This document shows positions 1 through 29,740 of a DNA stretch of 64,000 nt, piece by piece (position 1 is the first letter of the stretch; every line of letters begins with the position of its first letter). The position numbers and the translations under genes were made by a program. The stretch is taken from assembly GCA_964631145.1 (NCBI GenBank), contig CAZVXT010000002.1, positions 1,140-65,139 on the forward strand, read 5' to 3'. The DNA comes from an uncultured Candidatus Saccharibacteria bacterium. GTDB taxonomy: Bacteria > Patescibacteriota > Doudnabacteria > UBA920. Below the pieces are notes generated by a model, which saw only the letters and a program-made list of their open reading frames with translations, did not search any database and was not told where the DNA came from.

Positions 1-274
1 CAATACCAGAAATTTCTTTAGCCGCATCACAAAAACGTGCGTAATCTGCCTCCTCCGCTGTGTTTGTAGGTCTTTTTGAGAGGTCAGTTGTTCTAATAAC
101 CATCAATGATTTATTTGGAGCGTATTGATCAAGTAATTTCAAAATCCCTACAATTCGTTTTGAATCATATCGGTTGTGTTGCGAGAAATGAAGTCCTCGA
201 TACTTATCGTCAGAGATTCTTTTTGTAATAAACTCTAACGCTTTATTTCCTTGGTTAATATCAATTAATGCCAT
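1..274 (-). CDS. Hypothetical protein, 5' end only. ATG at 272-274 on the minus strand; the ORF runs open to the window start in a frame different from the upstream MTase. Possibly the partner (e.g. nuclease) of the methyltransferases.
   Basis: Manual translation of the reverse complement of 1..274 gives MALIDINQGNKALEFITKRISDDKYRGLHFSQHNRYDSKRIVGILKLLDQYAPNKSL... with no stop. It is not in the ORF track because it runs off the window edge. Confidence 0.3.
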   Translation of the reverse strand, partial: MALIDINQGNKALEFITKRISDDKYRGLHFSQHNRYDSKRIVGILKLLDQYAPNKSLMVIRTTDLSKRPTNTAEEADYARFCDAAKEISGI

Positions 275-1043
275 ATTCTTTGAGATTCTTTTTTGATAAT
301 TCTACATATTTTTTATCCATGTCTGAACACAGATAATTTCTTTGTAACCTGTTGGCGGCTACAGCAGTAGTACCACTTCCAACAAAACAATCCATAACCA
401 GGTCTCCTTTTTTTGAACTTGCCTTAATAATCCTTTCAACTAGGTCAAGAGGTTTTGGTGTTAAGTGACCCATCTTTTGTGTTTTACCGTTTACCTTTCT
501 TTTATGTCTTTCACTTGTTATGTGCCATACCTCGCCACAAAAACGACCCTCAGGGTTCGGAAACCATCTTTTACCATTTTTTAATATGCCTTTTTCTGCG
601 GCGTGTTGCATTCTTTCTGTCGATTCGTAAGGTATTCGAATATCGTTGTAGTTGAAAGTGTGCTTATTTGATTTTGTAAAAAAAAGTATTGTCTCCTGAC
701 CATTACTATATTTTTTCTTTGAAGCGCCCATACCGTCACGTTTATCCCAAGTTATCCAATTTTGAAATACCATTTTTTTTGAAACTAGATACTGCAAAAT
801 AAAAGCAGAGTTGTACGGCGTATTAAATACGTACAAACTTCCATTACTTTTTAATTTATCAATAACCAAATCAAGCCATGCGTAGGTAAAATCCAAAAAT
901 TCCTTTTGAGACCTGAAAGTATCCCAATCAGCCTTATGCATATTATAAGGTGGGTCAATTACAGCAAGATCAATAGAATTATTATCAACCTTTTTAAGGA
1001 AGTCGAAACAGTCTAGGTTGTAGATTTTATTAATTTCTAGCAT
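261..1043 (-). CDS. Beta-class DNA methyltransferase, N6-adenine type. Motif IV (DPPY) precedes a C-terminal motif I (FxGxG).
   Basis: Protein contains 'LAVIDPPYNM' (DPPY catalytic motif) near the N-terminus and 'DCFVGSGTTAVAA' (AdoMet-binding motif I) near the C-terminus. This order is typical of the PF01555 N6/N4 MTase family. Confidence 0.8.
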   Translation of the reverse strand: MLEINKIYNLDCFDFLKKVDNNSIDLAVIDPPYNMHKADWDTFRSQKEFLDFTYAWLDLVIDKLKSNGSLYVFNTPYNSAFILQYLVSKKMVFQNWITWDKRDGMGASKKKYSNGQETILFFTKSNKHTFNYNDIRIPYESTERMQHAAEKGILKNGKRWFPNPEGRFCGEVWHITSERHKRKVNGKTQKMGHLTPKPLDLVERIIKASSKKGDLVMDCFVGSGTTAVAANRLQRNYLCSDMDKKYVELSKKNLKEYGIN

Positions 1044-1045
1044 AA

Positions 1046-1876
1046 CTAGTCTTTTAATTTTAACTTAATAACCCTTTCATAACTTTTTGATATTTCGTAA
1101 CCTACATACTTTCTCCCTAACTCCTTTGCAACTTTAAGTGTAGTGCCTGAACCAGCAAATGGGTCCAAAACCGTTTCGCCAAAAAAAGTAAATAGTTTTA
1201 CACATCTCCTAACTATTTCCTCAGGCATAATTGCTGAGTGTTCTCCGAAAGCAATATCTCCCTTACCAGGGATCGGGATGTTCCATATTTGTTTCGTAAG
1301 TTCAACCCATTCTTTTTGAGTCAATTTACTTTTTTCTTTTATGTCTTTTGGAACATTATTTTCTGGTTGTCCATCTTTAACAAACACGGTAATAAACTCA
1401 ATTGTATTTTGGGCATAAAAATTACGTGGATATGGATAACTTCCAAACATTAACTTCTTTGAGGGATTGGTTCTATTCCAAATGTATACATCCATCAAAA
1501 AAAGACCTGTACCGTTCAAAATTGAATGTTCAATATCACTATTAATATTAAAAATATGTCTGTTGTAGTGAGTAATTAAATTCTTTTTTAACATCGGCAT
1601 TAACGGAGTATTAACAATTAATTTTCCGTTTGGCTTCAACACTCTTTCACACTCTTTCCAAACCGCTAACATTTCTTTAATATATTTTGAATAGTCAGAA
1701 ATATCTCCAATTTGTCCCTTGGCTTTTGCTGCTTGTTTTTTTTCTTGACGACCATCGAGAGAATAGTCTTTGATATTAAAATACGGTGGACTAGTTACGA
1801 TCAATTGCACAGAGTTATCAGGTAACTCCTTCATGTTTCTCGCATCCTTAAAAAATACTTTGTTGTTATATTCCAT
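1046..1876 (-). CDS. Beta-class DNA methyltransferase, N4-cytosine or N6-adenine type, with an SPPY motif.
   Basis: 'LIVTSPPYFN' (SPPY motif IV) is N-terminal and 'DPFAGSGTTLKVA' (motif I) is C-terminal. It lies 3 nt from the adjacent MTase and on the same strand. Confidence 0.8.
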   Translation of the reverse strand: MEYNNKVFFKDARNMKELPDNSVQLIVTSPPYFNIKDYSLDGRQEKKQAAKAKGQIGDISDYSKYIKEMLAVWKECERVLKPNGKLIVNTPLMPMLKKNLITHYNRHIFNINSDIEHSILNGTGLFLMDVYIWNRTNPSKKLMFGSYPYPRNFYAQNTIEFITVFVKDGQPENNVPKDIKEKSKLTQKEWVELTKQIWNIPIPGKGDIAFGEHSAIMPEEIVRRCVKLFTFFGETVLDPFAGSGTTLKVAKELGRKYVGYEISKSYERVIKLKLKD

Positions 1877-1880
1877 AAAA

Positions 1881-2087
1881 TTATTTTTTCAATTGCTTTT
1901 TTGCAATTTTCACATTTGAGGTTATTTGCAAAAAAATCTCAAGGTCTTTTTCATTAATTCTCCAATAGCCGACCTTTGATGCTTTTAATTTGCCCTCATG
2001 AATGTAGCGAAATACAGAGCGTTCACTAACACGGAGAACCTCTGCAACTTCTTTTGTATTAAGAAATTTTGTAGTCATATTTTTCAT
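1881..2087 (-). CDS. Excisionase / MerR-type HTH DNA-binding protein (Xis-like).
   Basis: 'LNTKEVAEVLRVSERSVFRYIHEGKLKASKVGYWRINEKDLEIFL' is a classic HTH_17/excisionase-family signature. The likely start is MKNMTTKF (ATG at 2085-2087), preceded by AGGAGG 7 nt upstream; the track ORF starts 15 codons earlier. Confidence 0.6.
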   Translation of the reverse strand: MKNMTTKFLNTKEVAEVLRVSERSVFRYIHEGKLKASKVGYWRINEKDLEIFLQITSNVKIAKKQLKK

Positions 2088-2150
2088 TTGGTCTCCTCCT
2101 TCCATTTTAACTTTTATGAAAACATATGTCAAAGTGTGTCATATTGTTTC

Positions 2151-2179
2151 TTGATTAAATAATACGGTGGAGTTATAAT
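2151..2179 (+). promoter_or_regulatory. Sigma-70-like promoter, TTGATT-17-TATAAT, driving the GC-rich RNA and cargo genes.
   Basis: ttgatt (2151-2156), a 17-nt spacer, then tataat (2174-2179). It is divergent from the Xis-like gene. Confidence 0.4.
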
Positions 2180-2186
2180 AAATATG

Positions 2187-2340
2187 CTACCCATAGAAAT
2201 TATCGTACCCGCATAGGGCAGACGCACGTTTTTTGTGTCCAACATAGTTGTGACCAAAGACGGGCAACTGTCCCTGCCACAACTACGCCCTTGCGGCGAT
2301 AGTCTCTGTGGGTAGCCAGGTCAACGGTTGCCCCTTTTTT
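2187..2340 (+). ncRNA. Candidate structured sRNA or cis-acting leader of ~155 nt. It is GC-rich, has a closing 12-bp stem, and ends in an intrinsic terminator.
   Basis: It begins 7 nt after the -10 element. The 5' gctacccataga pairs with the 3' tctgtgggtagc (G-U compatible), and tagttgtg pairs with cacaacta. It ends with gggcaac...gttgcccc+TTTTTT at 2326-2340. GC content is far above the ~33% surroundings. There is no ORF. Confidence 0.35.
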
Positions 2341-2396
2341 GTAATTAGTTAGGCGTACCGATAACTTGATTAATAATTAAAGTTATTCAAACGTCT

Positions 2397-2900
2397 ATGA
2401 AAAATATAATAAAAAATTTGGCGATTACATTTTTATTTGTCGCCATTATGTATGTTTTGTTTGCCTTTGAGAAAGACCTACTTCTTAAAATCGTATTTAT
2501 TTTATTCTTGATTTTTGTTGCAGATTGGATTTGGAGGGTTGTACAAAAAGAACGCATAAAAAATCCTGATTACGTTGCAAAACAGGTAGCAAAAAGTCTC
2601 AAAAAATGGAGAGAGGATGCTAAGTTTTGGATTGATAGACAGAACCCTGAATATATTCAAGCCAACAACCAATTTAATGAATTTGAATCAATATATTTCA
2701 AACTTTGGGAAAAGTTCCTTCATGACAAAAATAAACGACTTGAAATAGTTAGAGACTGGGCAACCTTTATCGAATCGCAGTTAAAAGCATTGGCTATTAA
2801 CTCAGACGACATAGATCCTGAATCAAAAAAGAAGTATGGCTATTTGCAAATAAGGATTGAGGAAATAAAAAAGCGTTTTGATAAGTTGAATAAGGAATAA
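2397..2900 (+). CDS. Hypothetical membrane protein with two N-terminal transmembrane helices and a cytoplasmic helical domain. It is cargo of the integrative element.
   Basis: 167-aa ORF. The N-terminus 'LAITFLFVAIMYVLFAF...IVFILFLIFVADWIW' is hydrophobic. No recognisable family. Confidence 0.55.
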   Translation: MKNIIKNLAITFLFVAIMYVLFAFEKDLLLKIVFILFLIFVADWIWRVVQKERIKNPDYVAKQVAKSLKKWREDAKFWIDRQNPEYIQANNQFNEFESIYFKLWEKFLHDKNKRLEIVRDWATFIESQLKALAINSDDIDPESKKKYGYLQIRIEEIKKRFDKLNKE

Positions 2901-2956
2901 TTTGCCCCAGGGCAAATGTTCGATAAATACTACGTAAAATAGTAAAATGAAGTGAT

Positions 2957-3841
2957 ATGGGTGCAGATTTAACCAAACCTAAATTAACCATTGCCGAAGT
3001 TTCTATGGGTTATACAAAACCTGTGGACCGTTCGGATCGAATGCTTATTGACCTTAAGCGTCTTTTGATTTTATTAAAAGATGAATCATTTTTTAACACG
3101 ATAGATAATTTGTGGTCAAAATTAAAACTCCCTGAGTTGGCGGCCCAGGAGGACTTGGAAAACAAAGGATTAGTAACCCTACCACATCGAGTTGGTATTA
3201 ATTCAAAATACTTAAATTCTATTTCAGTAGATGCTAGAGAGACGATCGAAAAAGAAGTTTATTCAAAAGTACTAAAGAAGTATGAATTGAGTTTTAATTT
3301 TTATCCTTTTATTGAATTTTATTTACTTTATCACTCACTCCTGAGGTTAAGAGAACCTATTTCGCCAGTACAGCCAAATCCCAAAATGTATAACCTATAC
3401 AAGAAATATCCTCTTGAGTTTTTAAGGAATCCTCACACGACAAGCGATATCAATTTTTTCATAATGAAAGCAAAAACAGCAATGTCTTTACATAAATACA
3501 AAGCAGATAAAGACGACCTTTCGCTATTGCGAGATTTGAAAACTATTCTACAAATTAACAAAAACAAAGAACGTGGCGGTAGTATTGAAAAAATAAATAA
3601 ATTCTTAATAGCCTTAAAATCTATCGAAGTTCATGGTAAGGAAATCGGTAGAGATTGTGATGGTAGAAAAGTCATAAACACATATGCAATGCTATCGGCA
3701 GATTTTATTCCATTGGATTTTGAACTGATACCAGGTAACAACCTTTCAATTTTTAAGAAAAAGCAAAAACTAGAATCTGATAACTTAAGAAAAGCAATAC
3801 AAAGAGCAGAAAAGTTAAAGAATAAATTACTAAAAAATTAA
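2957..3841 (+). CDS. Hypothetical cytoplasmic protein, cargo of the integrative element, with no recognisable domain.
   Basis: 294-aa ORF located 57 nt after the previous gene and on the same strand. A terminator follows at 3873-3898. Confidence 0.55.
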   Translation: MGADLTKPKLTIAEVSMGYTKPVDRSDRMLIDLKRLLILLKDESFFNTIDNLWSKLKLPELAAQEDLENKGLVTLPHRVGINSKYLNSISVDARETIEKEVYSKVLKKYELSFNFYPFIEFYLLYHSLLRLREPISPVQPNPKMYNLYKKYPLEFLRNPHTTSDINFFIMKAKTAMSLHKYKADKDDLSLLRDLKTILQINKNKERGGSIEKINKFLIALKSIEVHGKEIGRDCDGRKVINTYAMLSADFIPLDFELIPGNNLSIFKKKQKLESDNLRKAIQRAEKLKNKLLKN

Positions 3842-3872
3842 GTTCCACTTAGCGAATGAGCCGCTTGATATA

Positions 3873-3898
3873 ACTCCAGTATGAGACTGGAGTTTTTT
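3873..3898 (+). terminator. Intrinsic terminator.
   Basis: actccagt-atgag-actggag followed by TTTTTT. Confidence 0.6.
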
Positions 3899-4189
3899 CT
3901 TGTCTCAAGACGTCGGGTGCAAAGTGGATCTATTCCACTTCCGAGAAAAGGTCAACTGCACCCTGATCTCTATCGGAAGTGAAATAGGTCCATTTTCTAT
4001 TTCACCCAAATGACTAAAAGGTCGAAAAACATATGGTAAGCGATAAAGCACTACAAGAACTAAAAGAAGTATTCCAATTGGAAAAAGGATACATTCCTGA
4101 GGAAAAGGAATTAGTGCTTTATGCTACCAAATTATTAACCCTAATGGACCATGTCTTTAAGCCAATAAAAAAGGACTGGGTGCAGAAAC

Positions 4190-4726
4190 ATGAACAACAA
4201 CAAACAGGAAATAAAACCGAACCGTGATAAGCCTGGATACTCAGGTGGTAACACTTGGATTGATAGATTTGAAAGAAAAACTTTCAATGCAAGCGAATCA
4301 TACAAAAGGTTTGATAAATCCATTCTAAGAAAAAAAGATAAAGCTACTCGATTATTCATTGATAATGAATTTATTGAAAAAGGATATCTTGCTGCTTTAC
4401 CTCATCAAACAATATCCGTGTACATGGCACTTATTAAGCACTGCAACACTAAAACCCAAACAGCATTCCCTTCACATAAAACCCTACAAAGACTAGCTGG
4501 GATAAAAAACAAAAATTCACTGATTGCTAGCATCTCAATTCTTGAGGATCTGAACATAATTAAAGTCATAAGAAGTAAAGGAGGTGTGAATTGTTCGAAT
4601 CACTATGGGTTTGTAAATTCTGATTATTGGATAGGGATTAATCCTGCATATCGGTTCAAAAAATTCAGAATCAAACAGTATCAAAATAATAAAGATGAGT
4701 ATCAAAAAGATGATAGCAATGAGTAA
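4190..4726 (+). CDS. Winged-HTH replication-initiator-like protein (phage/plasmid DnaD/RepA-like HTH_36 type).
   Basis: 'ISVYMALIKHCNTKTQTAFPSHKTLQRLAGIKNKNSLIASISILEDLNIIKV' matches the pattern of phage replisome-organiser / replication-initiator wHTH domains. Confidence 0.45.
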   Translation: MNNNKQEIKPNRDKPGYSGGNTWIDRFERKTFNASESYKRFDKSILRKKDKATRLFIDNEFIEKGYLAALPHQTISVYMALIKHCNTKTQTAFPSHKTLQRLAGIKNKNSLIASISILEDLNIIKVIRSKGGVNCSNHYGFVNSDYWIGINPAYRFKKFRIKQYQNNKDEYQKDDSNE

Positions 4727-4810
4727 CAAAATTGATACTCTAACTAACCTAATGAAACTAACCGATTTAACTAACCGAAGTGCAAAAAATTTGCACTGTT
4801 TGGGAAAAAT

Positions 4811-5059
4811 ATGAGACCCAAATGGCTAGAGGAATATCAGAATAGAATCCTTAAAAAGTTCGAGTATCGAAACTTGAATGGAACTTTTGCTAAGGGAAAC
4901 CCAGGAGGTCCTGGCAGACCAAGAGTTGATTTCCTTAAGCGTGCTGGAATTTACCGCAAAGTACCTCTTGAGCATATGTCTCCTGAAATGAGAGAGATAT
5001 CACTTAGAGCAGAACGTGGTGATTACAAGGCACTCAAAATTATTAAAGACTCGTTGTAA
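4811..5059 (+). CDS. Small phage-like protein with a GNPGGPGRPR motif, possibly terminase small-subunit-like or DNA-binding.
   Basis: 82-aa ORF. A 'KGNPGGPGRPR' motif of this kind occurs in terminase small subunits and other phage DNA-binding proteins. Confidence 0.35.
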   Translation: MRPKWLEEYQNRILKKFEYRNLNGTFAKGNPGGPGRPRVDFLKRAGIYRKVPLEHMSPEMREISLRAERGDYKALKIIKDSL

Positions 5060-5247
5060 AAATTGCCCCAGGGCAACAAATAAACCGAGAAAACCGACAA
5101 ATTCATTCCCCCAAGGAAATCAAAATTTGTTCCCAGGAACAAAAATAAACGGTGAAAACGGACAAAATCACACAAAAGTCACTGGAGTTATGCCAATCCA
5201 CTAGACTTCTATTAAAAATTAAGGCATGTTCGTAATAAGAAAACCCT

Positions 5248-6909
5248 ATGAAAAACCCACAAGATAACACAATCAAATACTTTATTTACGCCCGTAAGTC
5301 GAGCGAGGATAAAGAAAAGCAGGTCGCCTCAATTGGTGACCAATTAGAAGTACTAAACAAGGTCGCAAAGCAAAACAAATTAAACATAGTAGAAATTTAT
5401 GAGGAATCACAATCAGCCAAAGAACCAGGCAGACCACAGTTCAATACCATGCTCGCACGAATTGCTAAAGGCGATGCTAATGGGATACTTTGTTGGAAAC
5501 TTGATCGGTTGGCTCGCAATCCTCTTGATGGTGGGCAAATAAACTGGATGGTGCAGAAAGGCATAATTCAAATTATTAAAACCAACGAGAGAGACTACTT
5601 CCCAAGCGATAACGTTCTCATGATGCAAGTTGAGCTAGGAATGGCGAACCAATACTTGCGAGACCTTTCAACTAACGTAAAGAGAGGTTTAGCAAAAAAG
5701 ATACGAGACGGCTGGCTACCAAGTCTTGCACCGATCGGATACTTAAACGATAGAACTAACGAAAAAGGAAACCGTACAATAATGAAAGACCCCGAAAGGT
5801 TTGATATTGTAAGGAGAATTTGGGACCTTGCACTTACTGGAACTTATACAGTCCCACAGTTATGGGAAATAGCCTACAGGGATTTAGGGCTAAGAACAGT
5901 TCAAAGAAAAAACAGTGGTGGTAGACCAATATCAAAAAGCGGAATGTACTCACTACTAACAAACCCTTTTTATTACGGAATGATTCGCTATCCTGAAAAG
6001 ACTGGCGAATTAAACCAGGGCAAACACGAACCAATGATAACGGTCCAAGAATTCGAGCGTGTTCAAGAGATAATGGGCAAACGTGATGCAATACGACCAC
6101 AAAAAGAAACCTTTGCTTTTACAGGGCTAATGAAGTGCGGAAGCTGTGGTTGCTCGATAACTGCCGAGAGTAAAGTAAAGAAATGCAAAAACGGGAATAG
6201 TCACTACTACACGTACTACCACTGCACTAAAAAGAAAGTAGACATTAAATGCGAGGAAAAGTGCGTTGAGGTTAGAAAGTTAGAAGTTATGTTCAAAGAG
6301 AAACTCGCAGATTTACAGATATCAGACGCTTTCAAAGCCTGGGCAATAAAACACTTGCATGAAGTAAGGACCGTGGAAGCAGACAGTAACAAAGTTGCGG
6401 TGAGCGCAGCCTCAAAGGAATTAACCAGCGTATTGGACCAAATACGAGCGTTATCACTTAACTACATGTCTCCGCAAAACATAAACAGATCAATAATGAC
6501 TGAGAGTGAATACCTTGAAATCAAAAACGATTTATTAAAAAAGAAAGGTGCTGCTGAGAATAGAGTTCAATCAACATCAAATGAATTAGAGTCATGGATG
6601 GAATTAAGTGAAAAAACTTTTAACCTCGCATACTATGCAAGCGTTTGGTTTGAAAATGGAACGAATGAGCAACGTAAAGCAATAATGTCTTGTTTAGGCT
6701 CGAACCTCACACTAAAAGACGGAAAAGTCCAACTATACCTGCATCCTTTCCTAGAAACGCTAATTGAAAACAAAAAATCAGTGAGTGTTGAAACGGTCCA
6801 CGCTCGAACCTCCAAAAAGTCAATGATACAAACACAAAACGCCGCTTTCGGCGACGTTTGTACTACTTGGCTCGGGAGCTGGGATTCGAACCCAGGACCG
6901 ATCGGTTAA
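5248..6909 (+). CDS. Large serine recombinase (phage-type integrase). Its 3' end overlaps tRNA-Asn.
   Basis: The N-terminal resolvase catalytic domain is 'YARKSSEDKEKQ...GDQ' with the catalytic Ser and 'LDRLARN'. A recombinase domain and a zinc ribbon 'CGSCGCS...YYHCTKKK' follow. The last ~14 codons lie within the tRNA sequence. Confidence 0.9.
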   Translation: MKNPQDNTIKYFIYARKSSEDKEKQVASIGDQLEVLNKVAKQNKLNIVEIYEESQSAKEPGRPQFNTMLARIAKGDANGILCWKLDRLARNPLDGGQINWMVQKGIIQIIKTNERDYFPSDNVLMMQVELGMANQYLRDLSTNVKRGLAKKIRDGWLPSLAPIGYLNDRTNEKGNRTIMKDPERFDIVRRIWDLALTGTYTVPQLWEIAYRDLGLRTVQRKNSGGRPISKSGMYSLLTNPFYYGMIRYPEKTGELNQGKHEPMITVQEFERVQEIMGKRDAIRPQKETFAFTGLMKCGSCGCSITAESKVKKCKNGNSHYYTYYHCTKKKVDIKCEEKCVEVRKLEVMFKEKLADLQISDAFKAWAIKHLHEVRTVEADSNKVAVSAASKELTSVLDQIRALSLNYMSPQNINRSIMTESEYLEIKNDLLKKKGAAENRVQSTSNELESWMELSEKTFNLAYYASVWFENGTNEQRKAIMSCLGSNLTLKDGKVQLYLHPFLETLIENKKSVSVETVHARTSKKSMIQTQNAAFGDVCTTWLGSWDSNPGPIG

Positions 6910-6942
6910 CAGCCGATAGCTCTACCGCTGAGCTACTCCCGA
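6868..6942 (-). tRNA. tRNA-Asn (anticodon GTT), 75 nt with encoded CCA.
   Basis: The reverse complement is TCGGGAG-TA-GCTC-AGCGGTA-GAGC-T-ATCGG-CTGTTAA-CCGAT-CGGTC-CTGGG-TTCGAAT-CCCAG-CTCCCGA-G-CCA. This is a canonical cloverleaf with a 7-nt anticodon loop and GTT at positions 34-36. Confidence 0.9.
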
Positions 6943-7067
6943 ATATTCAATTTTTTGATCCTTATTATATTACCAAACCTTTATATATTTTTCAATCCCT
7001 GTTTTAACATATGTAAAAAGTCAAATAAATGATATAATTATAATACAAAAAACAGTGTTGTATCGAA

Positions 7068-29353: not shown

Positions 29354-29740
29354 TGGTGGAGATGGCGGGAGTTAAACCCGCGTCCAAAATTTCTTAACCA
29401 ATTTATTGTTCACAAGATTAGTTCGTTATTTTACTGCATGCCATTCAACGAACAACTAAGCATACAGTTTAAAATACTTCTTTTCGATATTGTTACGTAT
29501 TTCAAATAACAATATTATAGCTTCTATTGTCTAGCTAATCTTTACCCAAAGCAGAGGTAAAGGGCTAGTGCACGAACCAATGTTAGGCAAGTGCAGGTTG
29601 TAGGGTTGCATTAGAAAATGCAGCTACAACTTTGTTCCATGCGTTAGCACGTAAGATTGCTTGTAAGATTAATGAGCTTGCAAGCTGGCTCATCTTGCAT
29701 ATAAAGAGATTGTAAAATTCTGTCAAAATCCAACATCCCC
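29354..29740 (-). ncRNA. ssrA: tmRNA (SsrA).
   Basis: The 5' end GGGGAUGUUGGAUUUUGACAG matches the consensus GGGGcuGAUUcUGGAUUCGAC. The 3' tRNA-like end GGACGCGGGUUUAACUCCCGCCAUCUCCACCA contains the T-arm and ACCA. A candidate tag ORF ...ANAWNKVVAAFSNATLQPALA-UAA is present in the middle. Confidence 0.8.

Follow-up and report, generated by a model that had tools for sequence, protein, structure and literature searches.

We analysed a 64,000-nucleotide stretch (hereafter, the window) of contig CAZVXT010000002.1 from an uncultured Candidatus Saccharibacteria bacterium; all coordinates given below are window positions. Positions 1–6909 represent the right-hand portion of an integrative island, the left end of which lies beyond the window, and at the right edge of which a large serine recombinase gene abuts a tRNA gene. 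Promoters arranged back to back separate a leftward arm, with an HTH_17 gene and two methyltransferase genes, from a rightward arm, in which a compact structured RNA precedes two open reading frames (ORF1 and ORF2). This RNA and its possible role as the leader of the rightward operon are the subject of the present analysis. A preliminary description of the locus had noted the promoter, a GC-rich RNA closed by a 12-bp stem, a terminator (T1) 57 nt before the ATG of ORF1 at 2397, the two ORFs and a second terminator (T2), and had placed the RNA in a terminator-containing leader ahead of the gene pair, inside a mobile element and adjoining methyltransferases; all of these features were found in the positions it had given (Table 1).

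Table 1. Features of the island portion of the window, in order of position (aa, amino acids; TM, transmembrane segments).
Feature	Position	Strand	Remarks
Type II N6/N4 methyltransferase gene	261–1043	–	
Type II N6/N4 methyltransferase gene	1046–1876	–	
HTH_17 (AlpA/excisionase-type) gene	1881–2087	–	Pfam PF12728 at 4e-13; heads the leftward variable-cargo arm
Leftward promoter-like site TTGACA-17-TAAAAT	2104–2132	–	11/12 matches; for the HTH_17/cargo arm
Direct repeat TGTCA-N5-TGTCA	2127–2141		Between the back-to-back promoters; invariant in the window and 4 aligned loci
RNA/rightward-operon promoter TTGATT-17-TATAAT	2151–2179	+	10/12 matches
Structured RNA	2184–2342	+	About 155–157 nt; covariance-model match of 184.5 bits
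P1 5′ strand GCUACCCAUAGA	2186–2197	+	Pairs with 2305–2316; 12-bp closing stem
P3 hairpin	2221–2239	+	U-rich, variable
P4 arm	2245–2285	+	Stem and 25-nt loop almost invariant in sequence
P4-loop strand ACCAAAGAC-GGGCAACU	2253–2269	+	Complementary to the 3′ tail 2326–2342; long-range/pseudoknot helix
Element B, GGGCAACU	2262–2269	+	P4-loop segment, look-alike of C
Element C, GGGUAGCC	2310–2317	+	3′ end of P1 and 5′ strand of the terminator
T1, intrinsic-terminator-like hairpin GGGUAGCC-loop-GGUUGCCC with U-tract	2310–2342	+	Hairpin 2310–2333, T-run 2335–2340
Element D, GGUUGCCC	2326–2333	+	Immediately ahead of the U-tract; complementary to both B and C
Start-codon hairpin, two-tier	2348–2397	+	Outer stem spans –6 to +1 of the ORF1 start codon
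ORF1	2397–2900	+	167 aa, 2-TM
Palindrome TTTGCCCCAGGGCAAA	2901–2916	+	Directly after the ORF1 stop; motif recurs upstream of the recombinase gene
ORF2	2957–3841	+	294 aa, basic, alpha/beta
Terminator T2	3872–3900	+	Hairpin 3872–3894, then T-rich sequence; downstream of ORF2
Large serine recombinase gene	5248–6909	+	Pfam Resolvase, Recombinase and Zn_ribbon_recom
tRNA-Asn	6868–6942	–	3′ half overlapped by the final 42 nt of the recombinase gene (6868–6909)

The region 2185–2342 folds with a calculated energy of –67.9 kcal/mol (z-score of –5.76), a stability that none of 200 shuffled sequences attained, and has a GC content of 0.49 vs ~0.31 in the flanks. Its architecture is that of a rod, formed by helices P1, P1b and P2, closing a three-way junction with the P3 hairpin and the P4 arm. 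When the Rfam scan suggested in the preliminary description was run, no family was matched: Rfam 15 at gathering thresholds returned only tmRNA (transfer-messenger RNA) and tRNA matches over the whole window, and permissive scans of 1850–5300 and 2170–2400 gave chance-level miRNA and snoRNA matches only (E ≥ 0.05, far below thresholds). By these searches, the RNA represents a new family, unrelated to any in Rfam. A 14-mer taken from it (TGTGGGTAGCCAGG) produced only chance matches to genome and viral contigs in an nhmmer check, a 26-base gapped RNA pattern was found in 2 JGI contigs only and in none of IMG/VR, BLASTN of the leader against phage and plasmid collections gave no match, and nothing specific was found in the literature on such islands or RNAs in uncultured lineages. 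Two resemblances were considered and rejected. The 37-nt unit that mimics a CRISPR repeat (GTTGTG...CACAAC) is the P4 hairpin, and the window holds no array or second copy of it; as to a bridge-like guide RNA for the recombinase, only 5 nt complementary to tRNA-Asn were seen by eye.

Conservation of the RNA was followed in related loci (designated L001 and so on), which are the contigs of ORF1 and ORF2 homologues together with two contigs recovered by the RNA pattern. As the preliminary description had expected of a genuine RNA element, RNA and operon were recovered together in 22 such loci and the stems covary. The RNA is present once in each of the 22, on the operon strand (nhmmer and covariance model R1), always directly upstream of and co-oriented with the rightward operon and never apart from it. 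Model R1 scores 130–185 bits in these loci, compared with at most 20 bits on the opposite strand and in 75 unrelated loci. Covariation was assessed in an alignment (A3) of 9 distinct RNA sequences, a tenth being found in L247. Of its 458 cells, 90% are paired, as against 34–49% when partners are slid; 13 pairs show double changes, and the observed covariation score is reached by 0 of 500 shuffles. Thus, the RNA has the structured, covarying domain that characterizes a riboswitch or attenuator of the terminator type.

The same alignment identifies the folded strand. There are 48 G-U cells vs 9 A-C cells, and this excess indicates that the + strand is the one that folds, matching the orientation of the promoter and the U-tract, and that the structure is an RNA and not a DNA cruciform. 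One might still suppose that it acts as DNA, serving as a single-strand origin, a transfer origin (oriT) or an accessory site of the recombinase: both strands fold well, and a Rep-like HTH_36 gene is present in some island members. Yet the strong excess of G-U over A-C argues for an RNA on the + strand, a correctly oriented promoter and U-tract are conserved, the minus strand yields only ~20 bits with the covariance model, and the RNA also occurs in islands that have no HTH_36 gene. We regard a function at the DNA level as very improbable.

The 3′ part of the RNA can pair in more than one way. Positions 2310–2317 (element C) are common to P1 and T1, so that the terminator stem competes with the closing helix of the domain, as in an expression platform. 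Element D can in turn pair with C or with B; the terminator 3′ strand therefore has two mutually exclusive partners, one of them in the most conserved part of the RNA. The canonical terminator hairpin, C:D, shows 100% pairing in the 9 sequences with no double changes; since C is invariant, covariation cannot test this hairpin. Its formation costs the outer 7 bp of P1, and the forced-terminator state lies 4.3–7.5 kcal/mol above the nested minimum free energy (MFE) structure. The B:D pairing runs on through the U-tract, which pairs with the purine-rich segment 2253–2261, to give a 15-pair helix between the tail and the P4 loop. All 135 of 135 cells of this helix are paired in the 9 distinct sequences (49–68% in slid controls); pairing survives changes on both sides at two positions (A-U to G-C) and on one side at five. 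Calculated energies of the tail/P4-loop duplex range from –16.5 to –20.8 kcal/mol, and on this estimate it could compete with the nested fold.

Taken as a class, promoter-like sites are not enriched here (13 found vs 12.3 expected from shuffles). What lends credence to the RNA promoter is its conservation: every homologous locus has it, equally spaced from the RNA 5′ end, even where its hexamers read TTGCTG/TATAAT or TTGAAA/TAAGAT. The –10 hexamer ends 6–7 nt ahead of the first P1 base pair in all loci, which suggests that the transcript starts at P1. The promoter scan found no other promoter-like site on the + strand ahead of ORF1, so ORF1 and ORF2 would be expressed only through read-through of T1. 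On the leftward side, the –35 element falls in an invariant block of the locus alignments. The TGTCA direct repeat overlaps this –35, and the –35 of the RNA promoter follows 10 bp further on; by its position and conservation, the repeat is a candidate operator for the HTH_17 protein.

Beyond T1, the leader forms a second hairpin that buries the ORF1 start codon. The A of the ORF1-slot AUG is paired in the MFE structure of 10 out of 10 distinct leader variants, in which the partner sequences differ and compensate each other, and z-scores of the hairpin range from –2.2 to –6. It is kept also where the ORF1 slot is taken by another gene. A Shine-Dalgarno sequence is lacking in front of ORF1, in contrast to the HTH_17 gene with its GGAGGAG.

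We propose that the RNA is a cis-acting leader, or attenuator, that limits and conditions the backbone operon of the island inserted at tRNA-Asn, and put the probability of this reading at about 0.5. The preliminary description had suggested regulation by RNA, either as a riboswitch or attenuator or as a small RNA (sRNA) antitoxin; an attenuator type is the best-supported reading, and no support was obtained for the antitoxin. In the proposed scheme, a strong and apparently unregulated promoter would transcribe a compact RNA domain made of the P1/P2 rod and the three-way junction with its invariant P4 loop. T1 would act as the first gate, with its 5′ strand shared with P1 and its 3′ strand and U-tract able to pair alternatively with the P4 loop, and the hairpin burying the ORF1 start codon would act as the second. 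The partner chosen by the terminator 3′ strand would set the amount of RNA polymerase read-through, and this choice would itself be set by a factor (a protein, a small molecule or another RNA) recognizing the invariant P4 loop or the end of P1. Termination at T1, regulation of the read-through and the existence of such a factor are thus all presumed by the scheme. The operon placed under control would comprise the membrane protein, ORF2, small ORFs, sometimes HTH_36, and then the large serine recombinase; the presence of T2 after ORF2 implies that it is punctuated.

Several considerations weigh against this proposal. Given the length and stability of P1, the canonical terminator hairpin would seldom be expected to prevail unaided. 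Both partners of the tail place a helix beside the U-tract, so that T1 could be constitutive and the RNA a discrete sRNA. Finally, the comparison covers 9–10 distinct RNA sequences from about 4 clades, and a single event, or two, may account for the double changes seen in the tail/P4 helix.

The second of these points leads to a different, rather unlikely view, in which a stable RNA of ~155 nt, ending at T1 with both ends paired, acts in trans as a ribonucleoprotein or an immunity RNA in the manner of P4 CI or P1 C4; its partner could be ORF2, s64 or s82, and the downstream genes would be expressed by leak-through. The near-consensus promoter is placed so as to start exactly at P1; the 3′ tail, with its U-tract, matches the P4 loop along its full length and could give a closed, exonuclease-resistant fold; and the P4 loop is invariant in sequence, as a recognition surface would be. 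Moreover, a distant ORF2-family gene in an unrelated tyrosine-integrase island also adjoins a structured small RNA, LOOT (see below). However, conserved complementarity was found only within the RNA itself, with no conserved complementary target elsewhere in the island, where a search for targets of a trans-acting RNA gave only AT-rich chance repeats. Palindromes with GGGCAA/TTGCCC half-sites vary with no matching changes in the RNA. The RNA never occurs apart from the operon, and the start-codon hairpin, together with the lack of a separate promoter, argues for a transcript that continues.

The leader might also modify the polymerase itself, which would then read through T1, T2 and later hairpins up to the recombinase gene, as do processive antitermination RNAs of the put, EAR, canT and conAn2 kind. 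The position of the RNA at the very 5′ end of a long same-strand operon with at least two intrinsic terminators would fit such a function, and there are precedents in phage HK022, the B. subtilis eps operon, pLS20 and Tn916 (PMC11658703). We nonetheless find this distinctly unlikely: the RNA shows no similarity to any Rfam family, the overlap of P1 and of the P4-loop pairing with T1 points to local structural competition, and the recombinase gene has a conserved 190-nt upstream region of its own and may have its own promoter.

We turn next to the gene order of the islands. Synteny was established by tblastn of the window proteins against the related loci, combined with gene tables, and covers about 20 islands. 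The rightward arm has a constant order: the RNA, a small membrane or secreted protein, a protein of ~270–290 aa, a 64-aa ORF, an optional HTH_36 gene (Rep-O-like), an 82-aa ORF and a serine recombinase at a tRNA. A 31-aa TM peptide takes the ORF1 slot in L004, a lipoprotein-like ORF takes it in L005, and the ORF2 slot is occupied by an unrelated 269-aa ORF in L007, L237, L238 and L239; that the latter is a hidden ORF2 homologue was ruled out by an hhalign probability of 2.4%. No match to these replacements, among them the 269-aa ORF of L007 and the L005 ORF in the ORF1 slot, was found in PADLOC, Pfam or PHROGs. What stays constant in the rightward arm is the RNA rather than the gene pair.

The leftward arm begins with HTH_17 in 20 of the 22 loci (tblastn); the gene was undetected in L005, and L010 and L242 are too short. 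Behind it, gene content differs from island to island. Two type II methyltransferases and a 411-aa ORF are found in the window, L006, L008 and L237; a type III-like methyltransferase with ResIII/RE_endonuc, with or without DUF4411/Peptidase_M78, in L001–3 and L243; a methyltransferase with Res, AAA_15 and SLFN_AlbA in L004; an ABC transporter in L247; and unknown genes in L005. We conclude that the arm formed by the RNA, the ORF1 slot, ORF2 and the recombinase is the conserved backbone of these islands and that the leftward arm is variable cargo. The term 'cargo module', under which the RNA and gene pair had first been described, is therefore not supported for the rightward arm, which is backbone in about 20 islands, with the variable genes on the other side.

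This bears directly on the function first ascribed to the pair, that of an abortive-infection, defence or toxin module in which a membrane effector and a soluble partner are accompanied by a riboswitch or sRNA antitoxin. In its favour, a membrane protein and its partner adjoin restriction-modification genes within a mobile element, the product of the ORF1 slot is in every case a small membrane or secreted protein, as would fit superinfection exclusion, and ORF2 is swapped for the unrelated 269-aa ORF in some islands, as cargo sometimes is. On the other hand, ORF1 and ORF2 have no match in PADLOC, Pfam or PHROG, synteny ties the pair to the recombination backbone in every island, with true variable cargo on the other arm, and the ORF2 family also adjoins a tyrosine integrase. 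An antitoxin RNA finds no support: tandem repeats of the type III toxin-antitoxin (ToxIN-like) kind are lacking in 1–7000, where the RNA is a single-copy fold, and ORF1 is replaced in some islands, as noted above. PADLOC matches are limited to the left-arm methyltransferases and the HTH_17 protein. We thus consider a defence or toxin role of the pair doubtful in the extreme.

The statement that neither protein belongs to a recognized family was borne out, and neither matched a housekeeping family. ORF1 carries hydrophobic segments at residues 4–25 and 28–46, which form an N-terminal 2-TM hairpin, and a helical basic tail. Among 5.8 billion proteins, 14 clusters homologous to ORF1 and 12 homologous to ORF2 were found. 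Both were without a match in Pfam, PHROG and PADLOC (0 families of PADLOC-DB 2.0 at E ≤ 1), and the ORF1 profile matched no solved structure in the Protein Data Bank (PDB). The membrane or secreted proteins of the ORF1 slot would fit exclusion or envelope functions.

ORF2 has an isoelectric point of 9.55, and its close homologues are 285 aa long owing to an internal indel. A profile HMMER search among 1.84 billion proteins retrieved 56 representatives (E ≤ 1e-3) of 130–309 aa, mostly 250–310, none of which has a Pfam domain or a sequence relative in PDB; no relatives were found in IMG/VR, and a profile search with alignment A6 added almost none. Residue Y125 is invariant in the family, and D66, S83, F115, L124 and R206 are nearly so. 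An AlphaFold2 model built from a 51-sequence alignment is confident (predicted local distance difference test score of 91.9, predicted template-modelling score of 0.87) and has no structural match in PDB or BFVD. By this model, ORF2 apparently represents a small family with a new fold.

One distant member of the ORF2 family, P0062, is encoded in L245, an island that ends with a tyrosine integrase and also carries a KAP_NTPase gene. Adjoining P0062, in a divergent intergenic control region (L245 4976–5099, minus strand), lies the Rfam LOOT RNA (RF03000; 75.9 bits, gathering threshold 46.4), followed by two terminator-like hairpins. This neighbourhood may give the orphan LOOT motif a genomic context. 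The basic charge of ORF2 and the RNAs next to its genes would fit nucleic-acid binding. One could go further and suppose that the ORF2 family is a new-fold RNA-binding partner of island-borne structured small RNAs, forming with them a module that decides whether the element stays integrated or excises and replicates. The suggestion rests on the unmatched fold, the basic protein and the position of members beside both the present RNA and LOOT; we hold it to be improbable, though if true it would define an unrecognized RNA-protein module and a first functional context for LOOT.

Further details concern the island setting. Part of tRNA-Asn is contributed by the island, as the 3′ end of the recombinase gene extends over the 3′ half of the tRNA gene. 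The same layout of recombinase at tRNA was seen in 6 other loci, 5 with tRNA-Asn and L004 with tRNA-Gln (L004 11490–11561). In L005 the recombinase gene abuts a group I intron (L005 11416–11686; Rfam, 91.6 bits). Direct repeats of attachment (att) sites, sought to define the left end of the island, were not found, as expected for serine recombinases. For the HTH_17 gene, the mechanically called ORF extends to 2132 (TTG start); the ATG at 2087 has the GGAGGAG Shine-Dalgarno sequence and yields the 62–68 aa length seen in homologues. The protein has a weak PADLOC match to mad1 (9e-10). At 1–260, on the minus strand, lies a partial ORF, the counterpart of the 411-aa gene that follows the methyltransferase pair in L008 and L237; this gene is probably the restriction endonuclease of the cargo restriction-modification system.

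T2 is identical in the window, L001, L006 and L243. It belongs to a block (3870–4005) that also contains an inverted repeat with 24-nt arms (3921–3944 / 3973–3996) and is virtually 100% identical in these four islands, the flanking ORFs being only ~70–77% identical. The block is confined to islands that also have the HTH_36 (Rep-O-like) gene, shares AGGTCAAC with the RNA linker 2318–2325, and may act as an origin or operator. Ahead of the recombinase gene (5060–5170), units composed of a short palindrome and a conserved AAATAAACGGTGAAAAC occur in 1–4 copies, and such units are also present in the equivalent regions of L006, L007, L008, L236, L237, L239 and L240. The arms of the palindrome covary (TTGCCCCAGGGCAA, TTACCTCAAGGTAA, TTTCCCCAGGGAAA, TTGTTCCCAGGAACAA), and the units look like iterons or RNA hairpins. 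To the right of the tRNA, the host chromosome carries type IV pilin-like ORFs from 7068 onward and, unrelated to the island, a tmRNA gene (29354–29740, minus strand; 108.6 bits) with the tag peptide AFSNATLQPALA.

Should the RNA indeed gate the backbone operon, a new class of RNA would govern the lifestyle switch of a mobile element by which restriction-modification and other defence genes are carried between uncultured bacteria. The wiring of the RNA would then provide a compact model of pseudoknot-controlled termination, with the start-codon hairpin as a second layer. The link to LOOT suggests that structured RNAs in the control regions of islands are more general than recognized. The element itself is rare, with a dozen or so protein clusters in 5.8 billion, and is known from metagenome-derived contigs only; ERZ28654503 and SRR26425196 are among the samples in which it occurs.

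Among known systems, P4 CI RNA and the C4 RNA of P1 and P7 are leader-encoded immunity RNAs, and Rfam has a C4 family. Like them, the window RNA is small and structured and heads an early or backbone operon in a temperate element, with a constitutive promoter and premature termination just downstream, both of which are presumed for the window RNA. Unlike them, it shows no sequence or covariance-model similarity to these RNAs, and no conserved target sites of the seqA/seqC kind were found.

In L245, LOOT occupies an equivalent niche, the divergent control region of an island with a distant ORF2-family member. Its fold, in contrast, consists of four hairpins and lies on the opposite strand relative to the ORF2 homologue, and the LOOT model finds no match in the window RNA, even with E relaxed to 10. 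Processive antitermination RNAs include HK022 put, B. subtilis EAR, pLS20 conAn2 and Tn916 canT, the last being 452 nt long and controlling genes needed after excision (PMC11658703). The likeness is one of layout only, the window RNA lying near the promoter of a long mobile-element operon with internal terminators; there is no homology, and the window RNA is much smaller than canT and physically overlaps the first terminator.

Resemblance to terminating riboswitches and attenuators extends to the design of the RNA. In such elements, for example the pbuE adenine ON-switch, one strand serves both as the 3′ side of P1 and as the 5′ side of the terminator. The window RNA likewise has a covarying 5′ domain with a conserved core, a P1 3′ strand shared with a terminator and U-tract, and a fixed place upstream of the same operon. 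It differs in that P1 with its extension (~19 bp) is far too stable for the usual tuning by a ligand, in that the P4 loop offers the terminator 3′ strand another, long-range partner, and in that it resides in the control region of a mobile element rather than at a metabolic gene and belongs to no Rfam family. Thus, a structured leader gating a mobile-element operon would be a known kind of role, fulfilled here by an unusual wiring.

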